A DNA stretch of 59,633 nt, taken from positions 1 to 59,633 of the IMG/VR virus record IMGVR_UViG_3300023184_000136. One strand, written 5' to 3'. Position 1 is the stretch's first letter, and every line of letters starts with the position of its first letter. A program made the position numbers and the translations under genes. Positions 8,386-59,633 of this stretch are shown here, in pieces. This DNA is from a virus. Taxonomy: Duplodnaviria > Caudoviricetes. The notes beneath the pieces were generated by a model. It had not been told where the DNA came from, did no database searches, and was given only the letters and a program-made list of their open reading frames with translations.

Positions 8386-8988
8386 ATGGCAAAAAATATA
8401 GTAAAAGATTCACCCAAAATTCTTGGGTTGGATGTATCGACAAAGACTATCGGATGGGCACTATTTGACATCGATAGTAAGAGCTTATTGGAATTAACTC
8501 ACGTTTCTCCAAGACCTAAACCAACAACTGATAGCAAAATTGAAGAACTATTACTTAAGAGTGGTGTGTTCAGAAACAAGCTTGAGGCATATGTTGGTAT
8601 GGGTATTACCAAAGTAATCATCGAAGAACCATTATTAAACTCAAATAACGTATGGACTGTAGGTACTCTCATGAGATACAACACATTGATTTGTAAAGAA
8701 ATCTATGATGTATTAGGAGTTATCCCTGAGTTCATTTCAACATACAATTCAAGAAAATTCGCATTCCCACATCTTGTTCAACCAAACGATAAAGGTAAAT
8801 ACGTCCTATTCGGTGGTTTTGAAAAAGATGCCGACAAGAAAGTCATCATATGGGAATTGGTTGCAAAAAGAGAACCTCAAATCACTTGGCAATATACCAA
8901 GAACAATACCCTCAAGAAAGAAAACTATGACCAAACAGATGCTTATTGTGCTACTTTAGGTTATATGAAATTTAAAGAAATTTGGTAG
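8386..8988 (+). CDS. RuvC-like Holliday junction resolvase
   Basis: RNase H-fold acidic motifs ILGLDVST..IGWA, IIEEP, DQTDAY. Confidence 0.8.
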   Translation: MAKNIVKDSPKILGLDVSTKTIGWALFDIDSKSLLELTHVSPRPKPTTDSKIEELLLKSGVFRNKLEAYVGMGITKVIIEEPLLNSNNVWTVGTLMRYNTLICKEIYDVLGVIPEFISTYNSRKFAFPHLVQPNDKGKYVLFGGFEKDADKKVIIWELVAKREPQITWQYTKNNTLKKENYDQTDAYCATLGYMKFKEIW

Positions 8989-9004
8989 TTTAAACTATTC
9001 TACG

Positions 9005-9012
9005 TATATTTG
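9005..9012 (+). promoter_or_regulatory. Bacteroidetes-type -7 promoter element TATATTTG
   Basis: Matches TAnnTTTG; 6 nt before ATG 9019. Confidence 0.55.
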
Positions 9013-9018
9013 TCTTCT

Positions 9019-9378
9019 ATGGCAAGATATATTATAGAAGATATTGAAACTAAAGGAATTAAGAAGTCACTCAAAAAGTGGGGTGAAATACCTATTAATA
9101 CAGAATATTTGGACGGAGTCATTAAAATCAACAATTATAGAAAATATACTTGGGCTGAAGAAGTTGATATAATTTTTGAAGGAAAAATATCTGTCAGAGT
9201 GGGGGTTGAGAATAGAACGTGGTATACCACCTCAATATTAAAAAAATATAGTATTTCAAAAGTTAAACTTAACAGATTTTTAAGGAAAAATTCTTTATTT
9301 GAAGTTAAAACAAGGATGAAATATTTTGGTGTTGAGATAAAAGATTATTACAATATAACAAAAATTAAATGGGAATAA
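9019..9378 (+). CDS. hypothetical protein
   Basis: ORF 9010..9378; ATG 9019 preferred because it lies downstream of the promoter element. Confidence 0.7.
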   Translation: MARYIIEDIETKGIKKSLKKWGEIPINTEYLDGVIKINNYRKYTWAEEVDIIFEGKISVRVGVENRTWYTTSILKKYSISKVKLNRFLRKNSLFEVKTRMKYFGVEIKDYYNITKIKWE

Positions 9379-23041: not shown

Positions 23042-23839
23042 ATGAGAGAAAAAGCAGTAATACCAATTAACCAAGACGAGATTGCAAGTTATTTAAAAGA
23101 CATTCGAAAGTTAACTGTAATGACGGTTGAAAGAGAACGTGAACTTGCAGATAGAATGTTATCGGGAAACATTACCGATGAAGAAAAGGCGGAGATAAAG
23201 AAGGAGATACTTGAAGGTAACCTTCGTTTCGTTATCACCGTGAGTAAACAATATCAAAACCAAGGGTTGGACTTCCCTGATTTGATTGCCGAAGGAAACT
23301 ATGGTTTGTTGAAAGCCATCGAGAACTTTGATTGGTCCAAGAAATTAAGATTTATATCTTATGCCGTTTGGTGGGTTCGTCAATCCATCCTGCAATCTCT
23401 TAATGAGAATGCAAGAACCATTCGTCTTCCCGTGAATGTGGTACAAGAGTTACAGAAAGCTAAGAAAGAGTTAGATAGAGAGGGTGTTGAATTACCTGAT
23501 AAGTTTGTTAACCTACCTTATACTGTTAACTTGGATTCACCTTTAAATGAAGATGGAGACACTTTGATGGACGTATTGAATAATCCTAACGCTGAGTGGG
23601 CTGATTCCAACTTGACTACTGAACAGACTTTGAAAGATAAGTTATTGGGTATGTTGGATGTATTGGATGAGAGAGAAAGAATTATCGTGGAGGATTATTT
23701 TGGACTATCTGGCTCAACAAGAACCTTGGAAGATATAGGTAATGACTTCGACTTAACGAAGGAAAGGGTACGACAGATTAAGGAAAAAGCTCTCAGAAAA
23801 CTGAGAAATGAGACGGGTTCTCTGTTCGATTATATGTAA
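23042..23839 (+). CDS. rpoD: RNA polymerase sigma70 factor (Bacteroidetes RpoD-like)
   Basis: NLRFVITVSKQYQNQG, DLIAEGN, RFISYAVWWVRQSI, region 4 LTKERVRQIKEKAL. Confidence 0.93.
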   Translation: MREKAVIPINQDEIASYLKDIRKLTVMTVERERELADRMLSGNITDEEKAEIKKEILEGNLRFVITVSKQYQNQGLDFPDLIAEGNYGLLKAIENFDWSKKLRFISYAVWWVRQSILQSLNENARTIRLPVNVVQELQKAKKELDREGVELPDKFVNLPYTVNLDSPLNEDGDTLMDVLNNPNAEWADSNLTTEQTLKDKLLGMLDVLDERERIIVEDYFGLSGSTRTLEDIGNDFDLTKERVRQIKEKALRKLRNETGSLFDYM

Positions 23840-27663: not shown

Positions 27664-29424
27664 ATGAACAACTTTGAAAATAATATTGACAAAATGGTCT
27701 CAAAAATTCTTTCTGAGGAAATTGAGAAGAAATCTAAACAAATTTCTGAACAACTTGAAGAAGAATTGAGTACTGGTCAAAAAAAAATAGCTAAACAAGC
27801 TGAGCCAAAAGATAAAATTACAGGTGCGGATTTTAAGAAATTAAGAGATGCAAAGAAACATAAAGAAGAAGTTGAAGAATTCTTTTTCTCTGATGACGAA
27901 GAAGATGAATCAACTTCAGGTGATTACGAAGGAGACGAAGATGCAGAAGATGAAGCTGAAAAATTATCGGCTCAAGAACCTACGTATGTAGGTAAAGGTC
28001 TACGTAAACCAAAAATGATTGGCTCATTTGATGATGAACATGGTTGGTTTGACGAACATGACAGACAAACACATCCTGATGATTTAGAAGATTATGACGA
28101 AGAGGAGTTTCATGATGTAGATTCATTACTTGCAAAACACGGTAGAAAACAACCTTGGTTTGGACCTAACGACGGAGAAAGATTTTTTAAAAGATATCAA
28201 GATAAATTTGGTGGTAAACCATTTAGAGTTAGACTTGCAAAAGGTTTAGAAGAAGACGCTGAAACTGATGAAGGAAATGAATTTTCAGGTGCTTTAGACA
28301 ATGCTAGAAAACATCATGAAAAAAGTTTTGAAGTTGGCGGTCACAAATATCCTGTTAAAGAAGCGAAGGGTAAAAAATGTCCTAAATGTGGAATGGTTGA
28401 TTGTAAATGTAATCACAAAAAAGAAACTAAAGAATCTGAGAAAAAGTGGATTCAAAAAACAGATATGAAAAAAGGTGCATTACATAAAAAGTTAAATGTT
28501 CCTGAAGACAAGAAAATCCCAAAAACTTTATTAAACAAATTAAAAAAAGAATTAATGGCTAAAGGTGAAGGAGACAAGAAATTATCTGCGGCCGATTCAA
28601 AATTATTGAAACAAGTTAATTTGGCGTTAACTCTTAAAAGTGTAAAAGAAAATAGAAACGTTCTTTCTTTGACTGAGAATGAATTAATTGATATGATTGA
28701 GAGTTTAGTTTTAGAACAAAAAGTTAAAGACATTGCAGAAAAAGATAACATCAGTAAGAAAGAAGCAACAGGTTTAAAGAAAACTGAAAAAGTTTTAGGA
28801 AAGAATAAATCAGAGGGAGACGCATACTTCAAAGAATTGGCTAAAAAAATGACTGATTACTTAAAAGATGGTACTAAAGCAAAATATGAAATGAATCCTG
28901 AAAAATTCCCTGAAAGTAACTATCAAATGGATAAAGATGCTAAGGTTATGAAATACAATCCATCTGAGGCGGTTGAAGAATATATTGATGCTTTCTCTTA
29001 TCCGGGAATGACAAATTTAGTATATGATGAAATCAAACCTGATGATAAAAGAATTGATAAGCAATTAAAAGGAGATTCAACATTTGGTAATGCTGTTACT
29101 GATAAAGAAGGAAAAGCGTTAGGTAATGTAGTCCCAAGTAAAGTTGGTGAAAAATTCAAGAAAAACTATGATGAAAATTTATATGGTGCTGAGCAAATGA
29201 AAGCGTCTTATAAGAGACAACCACAACCTGTTGAGGTTGAGGGTAATGGTCAAACTAAAGGTTCTTTAAAATCTAAAAAAGGAGCTGACAGTCAAAGTTC
29301 AATTGCAAAGGCAAGTAAAATACTTAACACGTTAGAATCTACTGAAAACAAAGCAGAAAAACTTGTTAACGAAGATATGGAAAAAATGAAAAATTTGATT
29401 GATTATAATAGAAAAACTCAATAA
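27664..29424 (+). CDS. highly charged putative prohead core/internal protein
   Basis: E/K/D-rich with many xxE sites and internal LTENELIDMIESLVLEQ; TATTTATA at 27643. Confidence 0.6.
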   Translation: MNNFENNIDKMVSKILSEEIEKKSKQISEQLEEELSTGQKKIAKQAEPKDKITGADFKKLRDAKKHKEEVEEFFFSDDEEDESTSGDYEGDEDAEDEAEKLSAQEPTYVGKGLRKPKMIGSFDDEHGWFDEHDRQTHPDDLEDYDEEEFHDVDSLLAKHGRKQPWFGPNDGERFFKRYQDKFGGKPFRVRLAKGLEEDAETDEGNEFSGALDNARKHHEKSFEVGGHKYPVKEAKGKKCPKCGMVDCKCNHKKETKESEKKWIQKTDMKKGALHKKLNVPEDKKIPKTLLNKLKKELMAKGEGDKKLSAADSKLLKQVNLALTLKSVKENRNVLSLTENELIDMIESLVLEQKVKDIAEKDNISKKEATGLKKTEKVLGKNKSEGDAYFKELAKKMTDYLKDGTKAKYEMNPEKFPESNYQMDKDAKVMKYNPSEAVEEYIDAFSYPGMTNLVYDEIKPDDKRIDKQLKGDSTFGNAVTDKEGKALGNVVPSKVGEKFKKNYDENLYGAEQMKASYKRQPQPVEVEGNGQTKGSLKSKKGADSQSSIAKASKILNTLESTENKAEKLVNEDMEKMKNLIDYNRKTQ

Positions 29425-31782: not shown

Positions 31783-32709
31783 ATGAAAGATTATTACAAA
31801 ATACTGGAAGTTGAAGAGCAATCGTCAGAAGATGACATAAAAAAAAGTTATCGAAACCTTTCAAAAAAGTATCATCCTGATGTAAACCCTGGTGGTGAAG
31901 AGATGTTTAAAGACATTGCCGAGGCGTATGAAGTGTTAGGTAATAAAGACAAACGTGCACAGTATAATAACCGAAAGAGTAATCCCTACGGTGGAACACC
32001 ATTTGAAGATTTATTCACTCAAATGTTTAACCAACGAAATCAGCAACAGCAACAACATTTCAGAAGAAAGTCTGCTCCTGACAAAGTTATAAAGGTTCAG
32101 ATATCACCTATAGAGTCTTATAAGGCTTCAGTCAAAACCGTTAACTATTTTAGAGAACAAGGGTGTAGTGTTTGTAAAGGAACTGGTGGTGATACTAATA
32201 CTTGTGGTACTTGTGGAGGAGCGGGATTCCAACTAAAAACATTTGGAACAGGATTTATGGTTCAACAAGTAAGAACTGCATGTCCTTCTTGTAATGGTAG
32301 AGGAAGCATAATCATCAACAAATGTCATCACTGTTCAGGTAAAGGTACCAAGACGGCAACACAAGAGATTAGAGTGAACATTCCATATGGTGCCGATGAC
32401 GGTCAGTTCCTTAAGTTACAAAATTTGGGTGACTTCAGTAACGGTGAGTACGGAGACTTAGTTTTACAAATAGAAATGACTCCGACAGACGGATATGAAA
32501 AAATGAATAATGATTTAATTTATAATCTATATTTGAACTTAGAACAATTACAACAAGATAAGTTTAACATTCCACATCCAGATGCAGACCTTATGATGTC
32601 TGCGCCAGCAACGTTCGATACCTCCAAACCATTAAGATTAAGAGGTAAAGGATATAGCGGTGGAGATATGTATGTAAAACTTCATGTGAAGTTTGAGAGA
32701 ACTACTTAA
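31783..32709 (+). CDS. dnaJ: DnaJ chaperone
   Basis: J-domain with HPD, four CxxCxGxG repeats and a C-terminal domain. Confidence 0.93.
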   Translation: MKDYYKILEVEEQSSEDDIKKSYRNLSKKYHPDVNPGGEEMFKDIAEAYEVLGNKDKRAQYNNRKSNPYGGTPFEDLFTQMFNQRNQQQQQHFRRKSAPDKVIKVQISPIESYKASVKTVNYFREQGCSVCKGTGGDTNTCGTCGGAGFQLKTFGTGFMVQQVRTACPSCNGRGSIIINKCHHCSGKGTKTATQEIRVNIPYGADDGQFLKLQNLGDFSNGEYGDLVLQIEMTPTDGYEKMNNDLIYNLYLNLEQLQQDKFNIPHPDADLMMSAPATFDTSKPLRLRGKGYSGGDMYVKLHVKFERTT

Positions 32710-39045: not shown

Positions 39046-42012
39046 ATGGCAAATATTATAATTTATCCCAGTAACGCAATTTCAAGACAACCTGGGAGGA
39101 TACCAAAAATAGATTTTTCAAATACCGCAACTATTACTTTACAAGTAATATCTGGGGCTACTATCCAATTTGGAACCAATGCTTTGGTGGTAAATCCAAC
39201 TCTTGGTGCAGTTTCTGCAACAACAATAAATGTTAAAGATTATTATGCTGTCACAGGAGTTCAAGTAATTAATGGTACAAGTTCATGGATTGGACCATCA
39301 ACAAACGTTTTAGGTAATACAGGAGCTCAAGGTAATACAGGAGCTCAAGGCTCAACAGGAGGAGGAGGTTCAGCAGGTGCTCAAGGTAGTACAGGGGCAC
39401 AGGGTTCAACAGGGGCACAAGGTGCAACTGGTAATACAGGTGCTCAAGGTGCTACGGGGGCTCAAGGAGCGATAGGTAATACAGGAGCGATAGGTAATAC
39501 AGGAGCACAAGGTTCAACAGGTGCACAAGGTTCGACAGGTGCTCAGGGCCAAACAGGTAATACAGGTGCTCAAGGTGCTACGGGGGCTCAAGGAGCGATA
39601 GGTAATACAGGAGCAATAGGTAATACAGGAGCCCAAGGAGGAACAGGGGCACAAGGTAGTACAGGTGCTCAAGGCCAAACAGGTAACACAGGAGCCCAAG
39701 GGTCAGGAGGTGCAACAGGAGCCCAAGGTAACACAGGAGCAATAGGTAATACAGGAGCTCAAGGAGCTGGTGGCGGAACAGGAAATACAGGAGCTCAAGG
39801 AGCGACAGGAAATACGGGTGCTCAGGGTTCAGGTGGTGGAACAGGAAATACAGGAGCTCAAGGTCAAACTGGAAATGCGGGAGCTCAGGGAGCGACAGGG
39901 AATGTAGGTACAACAGGACCTGGCGGTAATATAGGTAACACGGGAGCTCAAGGTTTAGGTGGTGGAACAGGAAATACAGGAGCTCAAGGTCAAACTGGAA
40001 ATGCGGGAGCTCAGGGAGCGACAGGGAATGTAGGTACAACAGGACCTGGAGGTAATACAGGAAATACAGGAGCTCAGGGTTCAGGAGGTGGGACAGGAAA
40101 TACAGGAGCTCAAGGGGCACAAGGAGGTGTATATGGTGTAGGCCAAGTATCATATCAAATATGGTCCGTCAATGCTGGTAATGGCAGTCTGTCTCAATAT
40201 GGTCAGTACCCTACTGATTCAACTGATTTTAACAAATGGTTTAATACCGCATATTCTAACTCAACTTTATACTCATCAGGTAATTCTACACCTGGAGTAA
40301 TTTGGGATTTTGTAGTTTGGACGACAATTACAAATGCTGGTATAACAATTCCAGCTACAGCGGGAGATTATATTGCGGTACAAACTTTTTCAACATTCAG
40401 ACCAACAGAAACTGGAACTTATACGTTTACCGCAGAATCAGACGATTCTTGCGACCTTTTTATTAACGGCACAAATGTTGCTAGTTTTTACGGTGGTAGA
40501 GGTACACCCGCATTAGGTACCACAGTGGGAACAATATCTTTAACCGCTGGAGTTAATTACTCAATGAGAGTAAGAATGCAGGAATATGCTGGTGGAGAGG
40601 GATTAAGAATATTTTGGAAAAAACCGTCTCAATCAACTGGAGGCACGTGGTATCAAAATACGGAGGAGGTTGGATTATCAGGCGCTCTTGGTCCAATAGG
40701 AGTTCAAGGAGCTCAGGGCCAAACAGGTCATCCAGGAGCTCAAGGGTCAGGAGGAGCAACGGGAGCTCAAGGTAATCCAGGTCAAACGGGTAATACAGGG
40801 GCTCAAGGAGCGGGAGGAAACGTAGGTACAACAGGACCTGGCGGTAATATAGGTAACACGGGAGCTCAAGGGTCAGGAGGAGCAACGGGAGCTCAAGGTA
40901 ATCCGGGTCAAACAGGACATCCAGGAGCTCAAGGAGCGTTAGGGGCAGGAGGACCACAAGGAGCTGGAGGAGCCACAGGAGCACAAGGTGCTCAAGGTGC
41001 TCAAGGTACTGTGGGACCACAAGGGGCACCAGGATTTCAAGGTAATAGAGGACCACAAGGACCGGGAGGACCAACAGGTGCTCAAGGTTCTCAAGGAGCT
41101 CCAGGATTTCAAGGAGGTGGAGGAGGACAAGGTTCTCAAGGAGCCACAGGACCAGGTGGTGGTACAGGACCTCAAGGTGCACAAGGAGCCACAGGACCAG
41201 GTGGTGGTACAGGACCTCAAGGTGCACAAGGTGCCGGTGGAAACGGAGGGCCAGGTGGTGGACAAGGTGCACAAGGTGCAGGTGGAAACGGAGGACCACA
41301 AGGAGCTCAAGGGTCTCAGGGTGGTTCAGGAAATAGTGGTGCTCAAGGAGCTCAAGGTCCAACAGGACCACAAGGAGCTCAAGGTCCAACAGGACCTCCT
41401 GGAATCAATTGTTATGGCGTTTATTTTTATCTAAATAATAACTGTTATTTTGCGTGTAATTATAATCAATATTATCTTTTAGGTTATCAACAATATTATA
41501 ATTATTTTGTATTTGCAACACCACACTATACAAGTTATACTAACTGTTTGAATACGAACTGTGATTTTGCTGGTCGTCAGTCAATTTACGGTAGTTATAT
41601 GAGTAATTTAATAGAATGTTGGTATGTATTTCCAACCTGTGGTGATGGAGATACTCTACAATATTATTGTTCTTATTTTTCGGATGAAGCATTAAAGACA
41701 GGTATTAAAACGCTTAAGGATGCTCTCCCTAAGTTGTTAGAACTTGAGGCGGTTGAATATGATTGGAATCAAAATCTTGGTGCTGACAAATACGATTACT
41801 TTAAAAGAAGAGGTAAATTACATACCATTGGATTAATTGCTCAAGACGTTAGAAAATATTATCCCGAAGTTGTAGGTATGCATGAAGATGGGTATTATTT
41901 TGTTGAATACCACAAATTAAATGCTGTTTTAGTTGAAGCTATAAAATCACAACAAATATTTATAGAAGATATTAAAGATGAATTAAACTTACTTGAAACT
42001 CTAATAAATTAA
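39046..42012 (+). CDS. collagen-like tail fibre 1 with PA14 domain, Cys/Tyr-rich tip and peptidase S74 chaperone
   Basis: Two long (Gly-X-Y)n tracts; PA14 motifs GTYTF...SDD..DLFING and QEYAGGE; S74 SDEALK...GLIAQDV..YPEVV. Confidence 0.85.
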
Positions 42013-44093
42013 TGGCAAACGTACTCATATATCCTCAAGGGAAAGGTGGTAACACCAATCCACACGTTTTATTTGATGATGGAACTAATAAGCTTCAAAT
42101 AAATGTTACTAACGCATTGGTTTTTTCATCTACAACGGTGTCAAGTGGTGTAACTATTGGAACAGCAAGTATTATTGTTTCAGGGTCATCGACTGCGGGT
42201 TCTACTTATGTTGGTGCAACTCAAATGATTGATGCTACAGGTGTATGGGTAGGACCAACAACAGCAATTAAAGGACTCCAAGGAGCTCAAGGTGCTCAAG
42301 GTAATACAGGTGCACAAGGTAATACAGGAGCACAAGGTGCATCAACAGGTGCTCAAGGTAATACAGGTGCTCAAGGGGGTCAAGGTGCTCAGGGAGCTCA
42401 AGGGGCTGCAACGGGAGCTCAAGGTAATACAGGAGCACAAGGAGGACAAGGTGCTCAAGGTGCACAAGGAGCCGCAACAGGAGCTCAAGGTAATACAGGA
42501 GCTCAAGGAGGAACTGGTGCTCAGGGAGCTCAAGGAGCCGCAATAGGAGCTCAAGGTAATACAGGAGCACAAGGAGGACAAGGTGCTCAAGGTGCACAAG
42601 GAGCTGCAACAGGAGCCCAAGGTAATACAGGAGCCCAAGGAGGAACTGGTGCTCAGGGAGCTCAAGGAGCTGCAACAGGAGCCCAAGGAGCTATAGGTTC
42701 TCAAGGCGCTCAAGGTTCTCAAGGTGCTCAAGGAGCTTCAACAGGAGCCCAAGGTGCCCAAGGAGCTCAAGGAGGAACAGGAGCCCAAGGTGCTCAAGGA
42801 GCTTCAACAGGAGCCCAAGGAGCCCAAGGTGCTCAAGGAGGAACAGGAGCTCAAGGTGCTCAAGGAGCTTCAACAGGAGCTCAAGGAGCTCAAGGAACTT
42901 TAGGTTTCCAAGGAGCTCAAGGTGCTCAAGGAGCCGCAACAGGAGCCCAAGGTGCTCAAGGAGCTCAAGGAGGAACTGGTGCCCAAGGAGCTCAAGGAGC
43001 CGCAACAGGAGCCCAAGGTGCTCAAGGAGCATTAGGTTTCCAAGGAGCCCAAGGTGCTCAAGGAGCCAACACAGGAGCCCAAGGTGCTCAAGGTTCTCAA
43101 GGACCAACAGGAGCACAAGGAGCACAAGGAGCTTCAACAGGTGCACAAGGAGCACAAGGAGCTTTAGGTTTCCAAGGAGCCCAAGGTGCTCAAGGTGGTA
43201 ATACAGGAGCCCAAGGTGCTCAAGGTTCTCAAGGACCAACAGGGGCTCAGGGAGCTCAAGGGGCCAACACAGGGGCTCAAGGTGCTGCAGGAGCTGGAGG
43301 ACCGCAAGGGGCTCAAGGTACTGCGGGAAGTACGGGAGCACAAGGTTCTCAAGGAGCGGTAGGCGCTCAAGGGCCTCAAGGACCAGCAAGTGGAGTTGCA
43401 GGTGCCCCTGGACCAACAGGACCAACAGGTGCTCAAGGTTCCCAAGGACTACAAGGTGGAGGAGGTGCGACAGGAGCCCAAGGAGCCCAAGGTTCAGGTG
43501 GTGGTGGTGGTGGCCAAGGTTCTCAAGGTGCTCAAGGTTCAGGTGGTGGTGGTGGTGGCCAAGGTTCTCAAGGTGCTCAAGGTTCAGGTGGTGGAGGAGG
43601 AGCCACAGGTGCACAAGGTTCTCAAGGAGGAGGAGGAGGACAAGGTGCTCAAGGTCCGGTAGGTGCTGACGGTCCACAAGGAAATACAGGACCCCAAGGA
43701 GATACGGGTAATCAAGGCCATCAAGGTCTTGCAGGACCAGGAGGACCTTCGGATATAAGACTTAAAGATAATGTTGTTAGACTTGAAAATAATTTAGATG
43801 TAATTCAAAAACTTCAAGGTGTCCTTTTTGAATGGGATGACGATAGTGTTTATTTAAGAGGTAACAAAAGTCTTCAATCCCAAGCAGCATTTTCAGGTGA
43901 TTCATTTGGGTTTATTGCTCAGGAGATGGAAAAAGTTATACCTGGAGTTGTTGATACTAATAGAGATGGGTATAAATCTATTGAATATGGTCAACTTGTA
44001 AGTTTAGGGATTGGTTCAATACAAGAACAACAAAAAAGAATAGATTCGATATTAGAAAGAATAAACAAACTTAAAGAATTAGTAAGTGGCTGA
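42012..44093 (+). CDS. collagen-like tail fibre 2 with peptidase S74 chaperone
   Basis: GAQ collagen with periodic GAAT interruptions; SDIRLK...[11 protein letters not shown]. Confidence 0.85.
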
Positions 44094-46215
44094 AGATATA
44101 ATAATAACCCCAGCGTCGGGTAAAATAGACTTTTATGATTCTGCATCCACAGTTACAACATGGGTGATAGAAACAGGTACGCTTAAATTTAAAAGAGGCG
44201 CAACTACGTATCTTTCTATGGATAATACTTATCCAAACTTCAGAGTGACTTCTGCAGATTTAAGATTAATTACATCACTTACAAACAACTCAGGAAACTT
44301 GATAGATTCAACGGGTTGGTTAGGTACAAGATATACTCAAGGTGCTCAAGGTGCTCAAGGAGGACAAGGTGCTCAGGGAGCTCAAGGTGGAACTGGAGGA
44401 CAAGGAGCACAAGGTGCTCAAGGTTCTACAGGTGCTCAAGGCTCTACAGGTGCCCAAGGAGGACAAGGAGCACAAGGAGCTCAAGGAGCAACAGGAACGG
44501 CCGGAGCTCAAGGTTCACAAGGAGGACAAGGTGCTCAAGGTGCTCAAGGTTCAACAGGAGCCCAAGGTTCACAAGGAGCTCAAGGAGGACAAGGAGCACA
44601 AGGTGCTCAAGGGGCGACAGGAACGGCCGGAGCTCAAGGTTCACAAGGAGGACAAGGTGCTCAAGGAGCCCAAGGTTCGACAGGTGCTCAAGGAGCCCAA
44701 GGTGCTCAAGGAGGACAAGGCGCTCAAGGAGCTAAGGGAGGTCAGGGAGCCACAGGAGCTCAAGGTTCACAAGGAGGTCAAGGAGCTCAAGGAGCACAAG
44801 GTGGTGGTGGAGCCACAGGAGCCCAAGGTGCTCAAGGAGGTCAAGGAGCTCAAGGAGCGCAAGGTGGTGGTGGAGCCACAGGAGCCCAAGGTGCTCAAGG
44901 TGGACAAGGAGCTCAAGGAGCTCAAGGAACTAAAGGAGGTCAAGGAGCTCAAGGTTCACAAGGTGGACAAGGAGCTCAAGGAGCACAAGGTGGTGGTGGA
45001 GCCACAGGAGCCCAAGGTGCTCAAGGAGGACAAGGTGCTCAGGGAGCTCAGGGTGGAACTGGAGGACAAGGAGCTCAAGGTTCACAAGGAGGTCAAGGTT
45101 CACAAGGAGGAGCTGGAGGCGCTGGTGCTCAAGGTTCACAAGGAGGAACAGGAGCCCAAGGTGCTCAAGGTGGACAAGGAGCTCAAGGAGCTCAAGGAGC
45201 TCAAGGTTCACAAGGAGGTCAAGGTTCACAAGGAGGAGCTGGAGGTGCTGGTGCTCAAGGTTCACAAGGAGGAACAGGAGGACAAGGTTCTCAAGGTGCT
45301 CAAGGACCTAAGGGTGTTCAAGGAGCTCAAGGTTCACAAGGAGGTCAGGGAGCTCAAGGAGGAGCTGGAGGAGCCGGAGCTCAAGGTTCACAAGGAGGAA
45401 CAGGAGGCCAAGGAGCTCAAGGTGCTCAAGGTTCCCAAGGAGGTCAAGGAGCTCAAGGAGCGACTGCTGCAACCGGTGCTCAAGGTGCTCAAGGAGCTTC
45501 ACCAACAGGACCAACAGGACCAGGAGGTGCTCAAGGTTTCCAAGGAGGACCAGGAGGGCAAGGAGCTCAAGGGTCTCAAGGACCAACAGGACCAGGTGGA
45601 GGACAAGGTGCTCAAGGAGCTCAAGGACCAACAGGACCAGGAGGTGCAACAGGAAGTCAAGGTGCTCAAGGACCAGTAGGACCGGGGGGTGCAACAGGAA
45701 GTCAAGGTGCTCAAGGACCAGTAGGACCAGGTGGAGGTCAAGGTGCTCAAGGAGCTCAAGGACCAGGAGGACCGCAAGGACCAGGAGGTAATCAAGGAGC
45801 TCAAGGACTTCAAGGTGGTGCAGGTATTCAAGGAGCTCAAGGAGCCAAAGGACCTGTCGGAGACCAAGGACCAACAGGACCACCTTCGGATATAAGATTT
45901 AAAAAGAATATTAGAAATATAGAGACACCACTTACAAAATTATTAAAAATAAGAGGAGTTGAGTTTATTTGGAAAAGACCAAATGATGATGGTGATAATA
46001 CGGTTGACATAGGATTTATTGCGCAAGAAGTTGCGGAGATATTCCCTGAATTAGTTTATAGTGGTAATAACACAACGGATTTGAAAAAAGTTAAGTATCA
46101 CGAAATAGTTTCAATTTGTCTTGAGGCGATAAAAGAACAATTTGAAGAATTAGATGAAAGTGAGACTAGATTAGAATATTTTGAAAATAGAATAAAAGAA
46201 AAGGGGTTGATTTAA
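44086..46215 (+). CDS. collagen-like tail fibre 3 with peptidase S74 chaperone
   Basis: GAQ/GGQ collagen; SDIRFK...GFIAQEV.EIFPELV. Confidence 0.85.
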
Positions 46216-55524: not shown

Positions 55525-55869
55525 ATGGCAAAAAAAGTAATACGATTGACTGAGGCTGACTTAACAAATGTCATCAAGAGAGTAATCACAGAACAAAGTG
55601 AAGAAAGAAATATCACAAGGGCTATTCAAAAGTTTTTAAACAAAACAATGAAAGCAGGATTAAGTGAAGATGGTAGAACAGGACGTAATTCTGCAACAGA
55701 AGCAGCAATTTCAAAATACCAATCTAGAATTGGAGTATATCCTTCAGATGGTACGTGGGGTCCAAACACATGGGATAAGATGCCGGAACAAGATAGAAAA
55801 TTATTGAAGGACCTTATTGCTAAAGAGGGTGGACCCGTGGATACATTTTTAAATTGGTTAGGAGTTTAA
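55525..55869 (+). CDS. peptidoglycan-binding domain protein
   Basis: IQKFLN...DGRTGRNSATEAAISKYQ...DGTWGPNT. Confidence 0.75.
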   Translation: MAKKVIRLTEADLTNVIKRVITEQSEERNITRAIQKFLNKTMKAGLSEDGRTGRNSATEAAISKYQSRIGVYPSDGTWGPNTWDKMPEQDRKLLKDLIAKEGGPVDTFLNWLGV

Positions 55870-57266
55870 TGAAAAAAATAATATCAGAATCAGGATTAAG
55901 AGACATTTCAGCTTTAAGGAAAAGATATCCTAAAGCTGAAATTTATTTTCACCAAGACTTGGACGGTGTCACAACCGCTATTGCGATGAAGAAATATCTT
56001 GAAGATAATGGTATTAAGGTTGTTGGTTCTCACATAATTCAATACGGAGATAAAGAATTTGCCGTTAAAAAGAATGATGCTAAAGGAGACGTAATGCCGG
56101 TTTTAGTTGATTTTGCTCATGGTAAACCAATGTTCAAGATACATACGGACCACCATGATAGACAAGTAGGTGCTGATAAAGACACATCAAAGTCATTCAG
56201 ACAAGCTCGTTCAAATGTTGAAACAATATCTCAAATTGTTTCTCCAAAAGATTTATTTCCAAGTTCGGATGTCCTTTTAATTAATACTGTAGACTCTGCA
56301 GATTTTGCCCGTCAGAATATTACACCTGAAGATGTTGTAAATTACCTTTTTCGTTTTGATAAAGAATTACCACTTCAAAAAAACAAAATGTTATTAGGGT
56401 TTGTTATTAACAAATTAGTTTTAGCTTTCAAAAACAGACCAGGATTTTTGGAAGGATTGGTTATGGATAGTGAGCCTTCATTAATGTCAATTCTTACTAA
56501 CATAAAGAAATGGATGAAAGAAACTAATGCCGTTGGTACAGAAGAACTTCAACATAATGCCAAAGACTATATGAAATCAATGGAAGGGGTTCCAAAAGTT
56601 GAAGATAGTATTATATCTCAATACGGAGGAGGTTCAATGTTTAAACCAGGTTCATATGACCGTTATACCCCTTTTAAGAACAATCCTGACGCTGATTTTT
56701 TAATCATGTCTTGGCCAATGGGGTTAGTTCAAGCGTCTTGTAATCCATTTAAAAAGGACAGAGAATTGAAAGGAGTTAACTTAGGTGAGATAGCTCAAGA
56801 AGTTTTGGGAAGATGGGAGTCTAAACTTAAAGAAAAGATGATTCCTTTGTCTACAGTTAAATGGGTTAGTGAAACAAGCGTTGGACCTGAAAGTATTGGA
56901 TTTACATTTCAAGACTTTAATGCCATTTATGGTGGAAAGTTTGAGAACCTACCAAACGGAGAAAAAGCGCTTAATCATATTAAAGATATGATGGAGACAC
57001 CATTCAAAGACTTACCTGAGGAACATAGAGAAATGTTAGATAAGATTAAAGTAAGTGCGTGGGATATAATTCAAGCCAATTCAGGAGGTCACAAATGTAT
57101 TACAAACATCGGAGGTTTAAGTTATTTAGGGAGAGGTACAAGACCACCTCAAGGAACATATCGTTATGACTCAAACAAAGAAGACCATCCGTACGTTAAG
57201 TTCGTGAAGATGATTGCCCAAGAATTTGAAAATAAATTAAAAGAGAAGATTCAAGAATCAAAATAA
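55869..57266 (+). CDS. DHH-family phosphoesterase
   Basis: HQDLDG, VDFAH, HTDHH, VDSAD, C-terminal GGH. Confidence 0.75.
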   Translation: MKKIISESGLRDISALRKRYPKAEIYFHQDLDGVTTAIAMKKYLEDNGIKVVGSHIIQYGDKEFAVKKNDAKGDVMPVLVDFAHGKPMFKIHTDHHDRQVGADKDTSKSFRQARSNVETISQIVSPKDLFPSSDVLLINTVDSADFARQNITPEDVVNYLFRFDKELPLQKNKMLLGFVINKLVLAFKNRPGFLEGLVMDSEPSLMSILTNIKKWMKETNAVGTEELQHNAKDYMKSMEGVPKVEDSIISQYGGGSMFKPGSYDRYTPFKNNPDADFLIMSWPMGLVQASCNPFKKDRELKGVNLGEIAQEVLGRWESKLKEKMIPLSTVKWVSETSVGPESIGFTFQDFNAIYGGKFENLPNGEKALNHIKDMMETPFKDLPEEHREMLDKIKVSAWDIIQANSGGHKCITNIGGLSYLGRGTRPPQGTYRYDSNKEDHPYVKFVKMIAQEFENKLKEKIQESK

Positions 57267-57619: not shown

Positions 57620-58039
57620 ATGGATAAAAAAAGATACACAGGAATCATCGTAAAATGTGGAGATAAAATCTTACTTTGTAAAAGAAATAACTTAGGTTCA
57701 TTCCCGGGAATGTGGTCAATACCTGGAGGTAAACTTGAAGAAGATGAGACAACTCAAGAGGGTGCGAAGAGAGAATTCTTTGAAGAAACTGCGGTTGACA
57801 TCCAAGACCAAGAGTTAACTTTTGTTGGTATGATACCTCGACACACCAGAGATGGTAAGAAGATTAAAGGATTGATGTATGTGTATTTATTAAAAGTTGA
57901 TAGCCCAATTCATCCTGATTTGGTTAATGCTATCGATGGAGAAGAACACACTGAATGTGGTTATTTTTCTATTGATGAAATAACCGAAGAGAAGTCAGGT
58001 GAGTATCTTCATAAACTCGCAGAAATAGTTTTACAATGA
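57620..58039 (+). CDS. Nudix hydrolase
   Basis: Nudix box GGKLEEDETTQEGAKREFFEETA. Confidence 0.9.
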   Translation: MDKKRYTGIIVKCGDKILLCKRNNLGSFPGMWSIPGGKLEEDETTQEGAKREFFEETAVDIQDQELTFVGMIPRHTRDGKKIKGLMYVYLLKVDSPIHPDLVNAIDGEEHTECGYFSIDEITEEKSGEYLHKLAEIVLQ

Positions 58040-58152
58040 TAGTTGATGTAATAATATTCGGACTTATGGCAGTAGTAATTGTCGTTGGACTTTATGGTTG
58101 GTGGTCAATAGAGAGACAAATTAAAAAAAATATTGACGATATGGACCTTTAA
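58036..58152 (+). CDS. 38-aa membrane peptide (absent from ORF track)
   Basis: MIVDVIIFGLMAVVIVVGLYGWWSIERQ...; ATGA overlap with the Nudix gene. Confidence 0.5.
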   Translation: MIVDVIIFGLMAVVIVVGLYGWWSIERQIKKNIDDMDL

Positions 58153-58254
58153 TTGAAAAAAAGTATTACCTTTGTAAGACTTTGATGGAAATGGAGATAT
58201 TTATATTTCCACACCTGAAAAGGTGAACATCCCCAAAAAATAGTTTCATAGAAA

Positions 58255-58286
58255 TTTGGCAGTGTCAAAACTGTTGATTACTTTTG
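58255..58286 (+). promoter_or_regulatory. Bacteroidetes sigma70 promoter P1 (TTTG-N20-TACTTTTG)
   Basis: Consensus -33/-7 elements with an A-rich upstream tract. Confidence 0.75.
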
Positions 58287-58362
58287 TGAGACAACCCTAT
58301 CCCACAAGTGAAAAGATTGAGAGATTTGATTAACTTGTGGGGTTTTTTATCGGATGTTGTTT

Positions 58363-58378
58363 AGCTCTTTAAAAATTT
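58363..58378 (+). promoter_or_regulatory. boxA-like antitermination element 1
   Basis: AGCTCTTTAAAAATTT vs rrn boxA TGCTCTTTAACAATTT. Confidence 0.6.
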
Positions 58379-58447
58379 GATTACACCCGCTGGTACAACC
58401 AGCGCATGACGTGGATAGGTGACCGTGGGGAAGTGGGATTGTAATCA
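58378..58447 (+). ncRNA. unidentified small structured RNA A
   Basis: Closing helix TGATTACA/TGTAATCA and internal hairpin CGCTGGT-aca-ACCAGCG; GC-rich in an AT-rich context. Confidence 0.5.
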
Positions 58448-58458
58448 TTAAGATATAT

Positions 58459-58530
58459 CGTGAGGTAGAGCAGTGGTAGCTCGGAAGGCTCATAACCTTT
58501 AGGTCGCGAGTTCGAATCTCGCCCTCGCAA
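58459..58530 (+). tRNA. tRNA-Met(CAT), initiator (fMet) type; CCA not encoded
   Basis: Full cloverleaf, anticodon loop CTCATAA, T-loop TTCGAAT; C1:A72 mismatch and A11:U24. Confidence 0.93.
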
Positions 58531-58562
58531 CAAAAAATAGTTTAACTATTTTTAAAAAAAGA

Positions 58563-58594
58563 TTTGACGAATTGAAAAGTTCTTCATATCTTTG
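58563..58594 (+). promoter_or_regulatory. Bacteroidetes sigma70 promoter P2 (TTTG-N20-TATCTTTG)
   Basis: Consensus elements with the same spacing as P1. Confidence 0.75.
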
Positions 58595-58617
58595 AAAAAC
58601 AATCGGGTAAAACCGAA

Positions 58618-58630
58618 AGTTCTTTAACAT
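58618..58630 (+). promoter_or_regulatory. boxA-like element 2
   Basis: AGTTCTTTAACAT, preceded by the hairpin TCGG-gtaaaa-CCGA. Confidence 0.6.
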
Positions 58631-58631
58631 C

Positions 58632-58693
58632 GAGATGCAGTTAACCTGTCCCATTAGGAGTGGGAGGTGATTGAGGGTGAATAACACATCTTC
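58632..58693 (+). ncRNA. unidentified small structured RNA B
   Basis: GAGATG/CATCTT closing helix; nested CAGTTAACC/GGTGATTG and TCCCAT/GTGGGA stems. Confidence 0.45.
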
Positions 58694-58743
58694 AATGAAG
58701 AATAACGAATTCAGTTATTTTGTTAAAAAAACTTACAAAAAAG

Positions 58744-58775
58744 TTTGATTGTTTCCCAAAACATTCTTACCTTTG
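58744..58775 (+). promoter_or_regulatory. Bacteroidetes sigma70 promoter P3 (TTTG-N20-TACCTTTG)
   Basis: Consensus elements with the same spacing as P1 and P2. Confidence 0.75.
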
Positions 58776-58857
58776 TAAGACAAAAGAAGAGAAGGGGTAG
58801 TTAAGGTCCCAAGTTTACTTGGCCGTAAAGTTTTCCCTTTTCTTCTTTTTAAAAAAA

Positions 58858-58870
58858 AGTTCTTTGAATA
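58858..58870 (+). promoter_or_regulatory. boxA-like element 3
   Basis: AGTTCTTTGAATA after the long hairpin at 58782-58849. Confidence 0.55.
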
Positions 58871-58944
58871 AAAATATTGTCTGTTCAGAATGTTTGATAA
58901 TGAGACCTTCGGGTTGATTTTGAATAACAAAATGATAAGATATA

Positions 58945-59633
58945 TTGGGCGGTCTATAGTCCATAAAATAAACCATGAAAGTGGTATAAAGTGATTTGTT
59001 CTTGATTGGAACGGTTGCGGCTTCGGGAACGGAGCTCGAGTAGACAAGCGGGATATCATTCGACCTTGAGTACTGAGGGTAACACTGTAGGGAAAGTGGT
59101 TGAGTGACTAAGCGATGTGGGTCGTTTAGTTGAGGTGGGAACACCGATAAGAATAACTCGTAGAGCTGTTGTAAGAAGTATGGTCGTCCAACTATACAAT
59201 TACGGAGTTCAATATTAGAGTAGATTTAAAACCGAAAGGTAAGAGTTCGTACAGGTGGTGCTGTTGCTCTCCTTATCAGATACCTACCAAGGTGTCAGTT
59301 ATGAAGTAAACTCAAAGTATGGAGGTCGGGAGACTTCAAGGTGTAGTTCAGTATCGTCTCATTCAAAAGATGAGATGACTGGTTTGACGGACCGCTACAT
59401 CTATTATCCACAAATCACAACTTTGTTAATTAAGGTTTAACAACTTATAAATCAATAAAGGAAAAGTGTTCGTCAGTCGTGGTAGACAGGTCACTACTTA
59501 GTCATGAGTTGTTCATGGCCGTAAAGGGTCCCAAACCCGATACGATTGTTTTGAAAGTTCTCTAATCCCGCAAGGATGAGTTTGGGTGGCAACCTAGAAG
59601 AGTGATGAGTAAGAATAGAGTATATTACGACTT
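58945..59633 (+). ncRNA. large ornate structured ncRNA, GOLLD-like (3' truncated by window)
   Basis: No credible ORF; many GNRA-capped hairpins; long-range helices GTGATTTGT(58991)/ACAAATCAC(59410) and AGTCGTGGTA(59475)/TATTACGACT(59623); close to a phage tRNA. Confidence 0.7.

Follow-up and report, generated by a model that had tools for sequence, protein, structure and literature searches.

What kind of leader do the untranslated RNAs at the end of the virus record IMGVR_UViG_3300023184_000136 carry, and which machinery of the host might it address? The window analysed here is this whole IMG/VR record of 59,633 bases, which is estimated to be about 20% complete. Its last 1.5 kb form an RNA-only locus of four short plus-strand transcription units with Bacteroidota-type promoters: unit 0 holds a small structured RNA, unit 1 a small RNA (sRNA) A and an initiator-like tRNA-Met, unit 2 sRNA B and unit 3 the large RNA GOLLD. 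From 58153 to the window end, the list of open reading frames (ORFs) contains no credible ORF, and two minus-strand ORFs of about 108 amino acids each fall within the large RNA. Units 1–3 share a portable leader cassette, in which a predicted host sigma-A promoter is followed by a covarying hairpin and an 8-nucleotide (nt) single-stranded GUUCUUUG/A. A preliminary description of this DNA had proposed that the phage disguises its RNAs as ribosomal RNA (rrn) operons. The anatomy of the leaders, their conservation, the identity of the motif with the boxA of rrn operons and a contrast among transfer-messenger RNA (tmRNA) genes speak for this proposal, whereas the lack of a predicted leader–trailer helix and the terminator-like character of the first hairpin speak against it.

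The three promoters of identical geometry that had been described for this region were found in place, all on the plus strand and with a spacer of 20 nt: TTTG-N20-TACTTTTG at 58255..58286, TTTG-N20-TATCTTTG at 58563..58594 and TTTG-N20-TACCTTTG at 58744..58775. As given in the available part of PMC9723704, the sigma-A consensus of Bacteroidota consists of a TAnnTTTG box at -12 to -5 and a TTTG near -33, and the -12..-5 rule of the same source places the transcription starts near 58291, 58599 and 58780, respectively. The three predicted promoters have both the -7 box and the TTTG near -33 and are conserved in relatives, in agreement with the earlier assignment of TAnnTTTG to the primary sigma factor of Bacteroidetes. 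In the window, TTTG-N18-21-TAnnTTTG occurs nine times against 3.2 expected, a number that none of 100 shuffles reached, and three of these nine sites, the cluster promoters, sit in the last 1.4 kb. A generic scan for sigma-70 promoters and terminators was uninformative, with 9 promoter-like sites against 8.2 expected and leader hairpin 1 unflagged.

The boxA-like words likewise stand where they had been reported: AGCTCTTTAAAAA at 58363..58375 in unit 1, a perfect match to GYTCTTTAANA, AGTTCTTTAACAT at 58618..58630 in unit 2 and AGTTCTTTGAATA at 58858..58870 in unit 3, each on the plus strand and 19–78 nt after the predicted start. GYTCTTTAANA is the boxA pattern of PMC5725501; GCTCTTTAAAA and GTTCTTTAACA of units 1 and 2 fit it exactly, while GTTCTTTGAAT is the word of the rrn leaders and spacers of Bacteroidota. 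Judged by sequence, these words are therefore putative boxA elements of an rrn-type antitermination leader. GYTCTTTRA occurs eight times in the window against 3.9 expected, and since 6 of 100 shuffles also reach eight, this count alone is weak. The three copies of the cluster lie on the plus strand; the other five comprise four on the minus strand and one within the ORF at 27664-29424, and no match outside the cluster sits in a leader.

The real support comes from conservation across loci, which had been named as a check on the proposal. With the 470-residue ORF at 55854-57266 as bait, IMG/VR yielded 464 relatives, and 80 loci were retained; 45 of these share DNA with 58100-59633, and 21 covering the region were taken for the scan. 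Promoter and motif matches recur in the same order in all 21 homologous loci scanned. Ahead of GOLLD, the core GTTCTTTG of the third word is invariant in 21/21 loci at a mean column identity of the alignment of 56%, which indicates that the motif is under selection at the level of sequence, and it takes part in no pairing when the GOLLD unit as a whole is folded by consensus. Of the 17 loci aligned for unit 2, 13 have the strict form, three have xxATCTTTGA-like words and the last has a different one. Unit 1 has the strict form in 12 of 18 aligned loci, GTTCTTA[AG]A in four, ATCTTTGA in one and no such word in one.

A hairpin had also been claimed between each promoter and its boxA, and one folds at all three places and is kept by compensatory changes, always on the plus strand. 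Leader hairpin 1, CCCACAAGT / ACTTGTGGG followed by U6, occupies 58301..58348 (hairpin 58301-58341, fold z score -3.0), and its stem and U-rich tail are conserved in relatives. The hairpin 1–U6 element is similar to the intrinsic terminator at the end of GOLLD in relatives, although its own place is upstream of boxA. Leader hairpin 2, TCGG-GTAAAA-CCGA at 58603..58616 (z -2.5), alternates in relatives between TCGG..CCGA and ACGAC..GTCGT/GTTGT and has the counterparts TCGGAAACGTCCGA and TCAGGAAAAGACCTGA in other GOLLD lineages. Leader hairpin 3 spans 58782..58849 (z -4.6, none of 200 shuffles as good); its 5′ arm is rich in purines and its 3′ arm in pyrimidines. Compensatory changes affect 11 of the 12 base pairs (bp) of its basal stem among 18 sequences, that is the 21 loci except L003 and L006, which carry a 40-nt insert, and the redundant L056. 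A leader peptide in hairpin 3 was considered and rejected, as relatives have ATG where the window has AAA. boxB is not known to have a sequence consensus; all three units have a candidate boxB hairpin directly upstream of boxA.

Alignment with the rrn leaders of Flavobacteriia and Bacteroidia had been suggested as a further check. A 16S probe for Bacteroidota rrn loci gave at least 121 matches, 80 of which were taken with flanks (L082-L161); in 62 of these, the sequence ahead of 16S measured 250 nt or more. In the 300 nt preceding 16S, GTTCTTT[AG]A is found in sense orientation in 24 of these 62 leaders and in antisense in none of the 62, both among the matches listed. The distance from the last TTTG..TAnnTTTG promoter to the word is 18–250 nt, usually with hairpins and an A-rich run in between, and the word stands 80–200 nt from 16S. 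In the 16S-23S spacers, (A/C)GTTC(A/T)TTGACATAT (pattern GTTC[AT]T[AT][AG]A) occurs in sense in 42 of 54 and in antisense once, again among the matches listed. In E. coli, boxA occurs in both the rrn leader and the spacer. The presence of the Bacteroidota word in both places, together with its fit to GYTCTTTAANA, indicates that it is a boxA; by sequence, GTTCTTT[AG]A thus represents the rrn boxA of Bacteroidota and the same word as in the phage leaders. The flank preferences also agree between 61 distinct phage and 27 host contexts, with A/C before the G, then G/A, then A after the U-run. The rrn boxA varies by lineage: Flavobacteriales have GTTCATTGA, Pedobacter leaders have GTTCTTA.AAGAG, and GTTCTTTGA is the form of Bacteroidales, Sphingobacteriales and other groups. 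The T-form of the phage boxA argues against a member of Flavobacteriaceae as the probable host, and such lineage-specific forms could help to assign hosts to phages of this kind.

The large RNA behind the third boxA had been described as an ornate RNA of more than 690 nt. It belongs to the known family GOLLD: Rfam RF02032 matches 59339-59633 and scores 210 bits, above the gathering score of 150 (E value 5.6e-58, model positions 1-299 of 416), and about 117 model positions fall beyond the window end. GOLLD occupies 58942..59633 on the plus strand, with a 5′ domain from about 58942 and a 3′ domain at 59339-59633 that is cut by the window end. Its 5′ part of about 400 nt is structured and covarying ahead of the conserved 3′ domain, and the family is described in the available part of PMC12286853 as having a variable 5′ domain ahead of a conserved 3′ domain. 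With a score above gathering, a variable 5′ domain and a total length of at least about 800 nt, the large RNA is a member of the family. Relatives running past the window end reach the full RF02032 model at 315-335 bits, and their GOLLD ends 10-45 nt past the model at an intrinsic terminator, CCCUG..GGGG plus U6-7, with compensatory changes. The consensus fold of the unit has 243 predicted pairs, 98 of them with compensatory changes. Two of the RNAs had been said to match nothing recognised. Over 57900-59633 and at E values up to 5, Rfam returned GOLLD, the tRNA and three chance-level eukaryotic matches only, and no family for sRNA A, sRNA B or unit 0.

A hairpin module with a UUCG loop (58880..58941, plus strand) lies between boxA 3 and the GOLLD core. 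The UUCG hairpin reported after the third boxA is thus present in the window, yet it is an optional insert of two forms (62-75 nt), found in 10 of 21 loci and absent from the other 11. According to the available part of PMC12286853, GOLLD adjoins tRNAs, with env-38 GOLLD downstream of a Met-tRNA, and its structure has been solved while its function is unknown. The present locus shares with RF02032 (env-38) of that source the tRNA-Met neighbour and the phage context.

The leader is not confined to the relatives of the window. In IMG/VR, an independent motif scan for a GOLLD word returned 119 loci. A second word was passed by 37; 20 of these went to Rfam and 15 were GOLLD, one of them (L231) being the same contig as L047. 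The motif lies 464-524 nt ahead of the GOLLD 3′ domain in 14 of the 15 Rfam-verified loci, and the fifteenth has GTTCTTTG followed by U, as in L080. An antisense control at the same loci gave six matches in four loci, none with the leading G. Most of the 15 belong to other lineages and show a promoter, TAAAACAAA, a small covarying hairpin and GTTCTTTGAAAA, which is the layout of unit 2 of the window. In the GenBank huge phage LR745206.1, the order promoter–boxA–tRNA is found, and tRNA-Met, boxA and GOLLD also stand in a row. Two phage tmRNA genes, on the minus strand and convergent with GOLLD (L242 2528-2915; L258 2463-2833), both have a -7 box and the motif 5–6 nt before the tmRNA 5′ end, whereas the motif was found ahead of none of five host Bacteroidota tmRNA genes. 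This contrast fits a phage that would dress its RNAs as rRNA. The motif as a promoter element was rejected, given its place 5–6 nt ahead of the tmRNA 5′ end.

Public sequencing runs provide evidence on expression. Nineteen runs contain part of the stretch, 14 of them on record as RNA (11 studies), and contigs were mapped from four metatranscriptomes of four studies. Hundreds of contigs from runs X1 and X7 fall on the GOLLD part. In run X3, one contig of 867 nt extends from 58901, inside the UUCG module, to 134 nt beyond the window end, while in run X7 a contig of depth 485 joins hairpin 3, a doubled boxA and the GOLLD 5′ end. Two 138-nt contigs of run X1 span exactly 58601-58738, that is unit 2 from 2 bases past its predicted start; their beginning at 58601 is the sole hint at a transcription start. 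boxA is thus included in the contigs of RNA libraries. Gaps between contigs (58828-58931 in X1) are uninformative, and summed depths are not expression levels. The contigs support the view that the units are expressed; they do not map the ends of the RNAs.

The best-supported mechanism for this leader, to which we assign a probability of about 0.6, is recruitment of host NusB/NusE, which would protect the RNAs from Rho and help them to fold. In E. coli, NusB-NusE binds boxA, and the resulting complex resists Rho and helps rRNA to fold (available part of PMC5725501, and abstracts). By analogy, host NusB-NusE (S10) would bind the phage boxA on the nascent RNA and, together with NusA and NusG, would convert RNA polymerase to an rrn-type elongation complex that would resist Rho. 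The Nus-modified complex may also aid co-transcriptional folding, which would matter most for the multi-domain GOLLD of about 870 nt. Because the phage RNAs are untranslated, they would otherwise be exposed to Rho. Rho would be expected to terminate a transcript such as GOLLD, which is about 870 nt long and not translated, and this provides a rationale for the cassette.

Several known systems are comparable with the leader. Like the E. coli rrn leader (boxB-boxA-boxC, with NusB/NusE/NusA/NusG/SuhB), the phage units have a promoter, a hairpin, a single-stranded boxA and an untranslated stable RNA; the boxA core is the same, and the word is present in the rrn leader and spacer of the host phylum. 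Unlike rrn operons, they make a tRNA, small RNAs and GOLLD, they measure 0.14-1 kb compared with 5 kb, and one of their hairpins is terminator-like. In the lambda nut site, boxA precedes boxB and the N protein is needed. This site is likewise a phage element with a boxA, which in lambda recruits host NusB/NusE. In the present units, by contrast, the hairpin stands before boxA throughout, which is the rrn order, and the products are non-coding RNAs instead of protein operons. A lambda-type nut site was rejected given this hairpin-then-boxA order in all units; an N-type protein was not searched for. The 5′ untranslated region of suhB represents a boxA outside rrn operons with Nus-mediated regulation, described in the available part of PMC5725501 for gamma-proteobacterial mRNAs, in which boxA lowers expression. 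The phage leaders share the location outside rrn operons and differ in that their units are non-coding RNAs, whereas suhB-type targets are mRNAs. As described in the available part of that paper, its boxA search left out non-coding RNAs, and the literature searched here contained little on antitermination in Bacteroidota.

Several observations weigh against recruitment of NusB/NusE. In many loci, boxA stands only 5–25 nt before the mature 5′ end of tRNA, tmRNA or the GOLLD core, and the units are so short that they would hardly need antitermination. In the consensus fold of 12 full units, no leader–trailer helix is predicted around GOLLD; the A/U-rich ends form a 4-bp pairing only. Hairpin 1 looks like a terminator and precedes boxA, so that a complex assembled at boxA could not bypass it, and the rrn-leader model does not account for this hairpin of unit 1. 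The GTTCTTA[AG]A form in unit 1 of 4/18 loci departs from the strict word, though Pedobacter rrn leaders are similar. Neither the starts and ends of the RNAs nor their strand or level can be established from contigs, and DNA may be present in an RNA library. Moreover, the 19-tRNA island of the complete 317-kb relative (G001:C1:131600-138900) contains no boxA-like word. Cellulophaga phage phi4:1_13, a Flavobacteriaceae phage, was inspected for a host-matched boxA variant, and its array of 23 tRNAs lacks both GTTCTTTRA and GTTCATTGA. Since tRNA arrays lack the motif while GOLLD and tmRNA have it, the cassette is not a general feature of tRNA genes; as read from sequence, it accompanies GOLLD, the small RNAs beside GOLLD, and tmRNA. 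In the 317-kb relative, tRNA-Met stands apart from the tRNA island and with GOLLD. AGTTCTTTRA occurs nine times in that genome against seven for the reversed control, with the matches at 89.7 and 90.2 kb lying antisense within ORFs, and a 270-kb relative (G002) has no motif cluster. In phi4:1_13 (L332 4828), one GCTCTTTGAAA is located after the last tRNA and before a small coding sequence, and may be due to chance.

These points leave room for other explanations of the motif. A chance resemblance in AT-rich DNA would agree with the modest excess in the window, which 6 of 100 shuffles equal, and with the 9 and 7 matches in the 317-kb relative. Position, strand and invariance across loci do not agree with it, nor do the 24 sense and 0 antisense words in rrn leaders among the matches listed. 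The 21/21 invariance and the leader and spacer counts refute it in practice, and its probability is close to nil. Alternatively, GUUCUUUG/A could be a processing or stability site for a nuclease or RNA-binding protein of host or phage, one that rRNA precursors and the phage RNAs have in common by coincidence. Such a site would account for the short distances, since the motif stands 5-6 nt before tmRNA, about 11 nt before tRNA-Met (L003, L006, L069) and, in loci without the UUCG insert, about 8 nt ahead of the GOLLD core, and the leaders of tRNA and tmRNA must be cut off. These leaders are removed by RNase P. We know of no cleavage signal with the sequence of the boxA word, and neither host tmRNA nor the phage tRNA island has the motif, yet both are processed. 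In addition, the distribution of the word in rrn operons, 80-200 nt from 16S and again in the spacer, is the textbook distribution of boxA. We therefore regard a processing site as unlikely.

The hairpins, rather than boxA, might be the functional part of the leader, acting as attenuators or terminators that yield very short RNAs or gated read-through, with boxA as a passenger from a captured rrn leader. Both the likeness of hairpin 1 plus U6 to the GOLLD terminator CCCUG..GGGG-U6 and the covariation of the leader hairpins are in line with this idea. However, hairpins 2 and 3 have no regular U-run, and a passenger would not remain invariant in 21/21 loci with variable flanks, nor would it recur in other lineages and ahead of tmRNA, which makes a passenger boxA improbable. 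The RNAs bearing boxA, sRNA B above all, could also be abundant decoys that titrate NusB/NusE from host rrn operons and so depress ribosome synthesis of the host instead of aiding the phage RNAs. The hairpin and boxA are included in the two unit 2 contigs from 58601, the depth-485 contig keeps boxA joined to the GOLLD 5′ end, and three or four copies of boxA lie within 0.6 kb. Against this, the contigs give neither the ends nor the levels of the RNAs, and processing is expected to remove the leader from the tRNA and tmRNA units; a decoy function appears highly improbable.

The remaining RNAs of the cluster are small and structured. Unit 0 (58167..58235, plus strand), which the preliminary description had overlooked, comprises a -7 box TACCTTTG at 58167-58174, with no TTTG at -33, and a small RNA of about 55 nt (58179-58235) with three covarying stems and without boxA. 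Its fold has an outer stem of 58184-58187 with 58228-58231 and hairpins at about 58192-58211 and 58212-58225. Compensatory changes in relatives lead from GGAGATAT/ATATTTCC to GGATATAT/ATATATCC, from CACCTG/GGTG to GTCCG/GGAC and from GATG/CATC to GGGG/CCCC. In unit 1, covariation defines sRNA A as a helix-closed element of about 68 nt at 58379..58446 (plus strand) with the invariant core CAACCAGCGCAUGACGUGGAUAGGUGAC. The outer stem occurs as GATTACACCC/GGGATTGTAATC, CTACTCAAG/CTTGAGTAG and CTACCC/GGGTAG. sRNA A is optional, being missing from four of 18 aligned loci (L003, L006, L069, L011).

Bacterial initiator tRNAs are characterised by a C1xA72 mismatch, A11:U24 and three G:C pairs in the anticodon stem. 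The tRNA-fMet claimed for unit 1 is a tRNA-Met (CAT) at 58459..58531 on the plus strand (ARAGORN; Rfam 63.7 bits). It is initiator-like, with the C1xA72 mismatch, A11:U24 and two of the three G:C pairs, at 30:40 and 31:39, whereas 29:41 is A:U; L011 has GGG/CCC. In loci that lack tRNA-Met or have it displaced, a tRNA-like stretch with a CUCAUAA loop and a T-arm, uncalled by ARAGORN, is located at L079 ~8950-9040 and after sRNA A in L061 and L074. The body of sRNA B in unit 2 (58631..58738, plus strand) consists of a conserved hairpin at 58644-58668, a variable hairpin at 58670-58696 and an A-rich tail. The conserved hairpin, AACCUGUCCyAUUAnGAGUrGGrGGU, is an invariant 26-nt element with one compensatory pair.

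Nearly all ORFs of the window lie on the plus strand. Its proteins include an SprB-repeat protein, a sigma-70 family protein, DnaJ and three collagen-repeat proteins with an S74 chaperone domain, which points to a large phage of a Bacteroidota host. The sigma-70 family protein (regions 2 and 4), a full-length DnaJ and the three consecutive collagen-repeat/S74 proteins, one of them also with a PA14 domain, are encoded at 23042-23839, 31783-32709 and 39046-46215, respectively. The last two protein genes before the RNA cluster are a NUDIX gene (57620-58039) and a 38-residue ORF of the ORF list with a hydrophobic stretch (58036..58152, plus strand). The C-terminal part of the latter aligns as coding sequence in relatives, its tail ..YGWW.IERQIKKNIDDMDL is conserved, and the ORF is kept directly ahead of the RNA cluster.

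GOLLD, its tRNA neighbourhood, antitermination by boxA and Nus factors, and the use of boxA by lambdoid phages were already known. The new element is the identification of the motif, on sequence grounds, as the predicted rrn boxA of Bacteroidota in the leader of GOLLD and of other phage non-coding RNAs. Compared with published GOLLD, the promoter–hairpin–boxA leader was found undescribed for this RNA in the literature searched. Neither GOLLD nor any other non-coding RNA of a phage was reported there with a boxA leader of the rrn type; the original 2009 GOLLD paper and supplementary files lay outside that search, and an earlier mention is possible. A wider generalisation, that GOLLD, phage tmRNA and companion sRNAs of Bacteroidota phages have a portable rRNA-mimic leader as their standard module of expression, and that boxA transcripts (sRNA B included) may also drain NusB/S10 from host rrn operons, seems quite unlikely at present. 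Under this generalisation, the GOLLD nanocage RNA would be made by the rRNA-type, Nus-modified polymerase of the host, and its function would be tied to a takeover of ribosome biogenesis.

GOLLD is among the largest non-coding RNAs of bacteria and phages, and a host-matched boxA leader offers a testable handle on how it is made. The leader suggests that GOLLD may depend on the host Nus machinery and on Rho protection of a long untranslated RNA. If recruitment of NusB/NusE by the leader is correct, non-coding RNAs of phages would join rRNA, lambdoid operons and a few mRNAs as targets of boxA/Nus control, and would do so in Bacteroidota.

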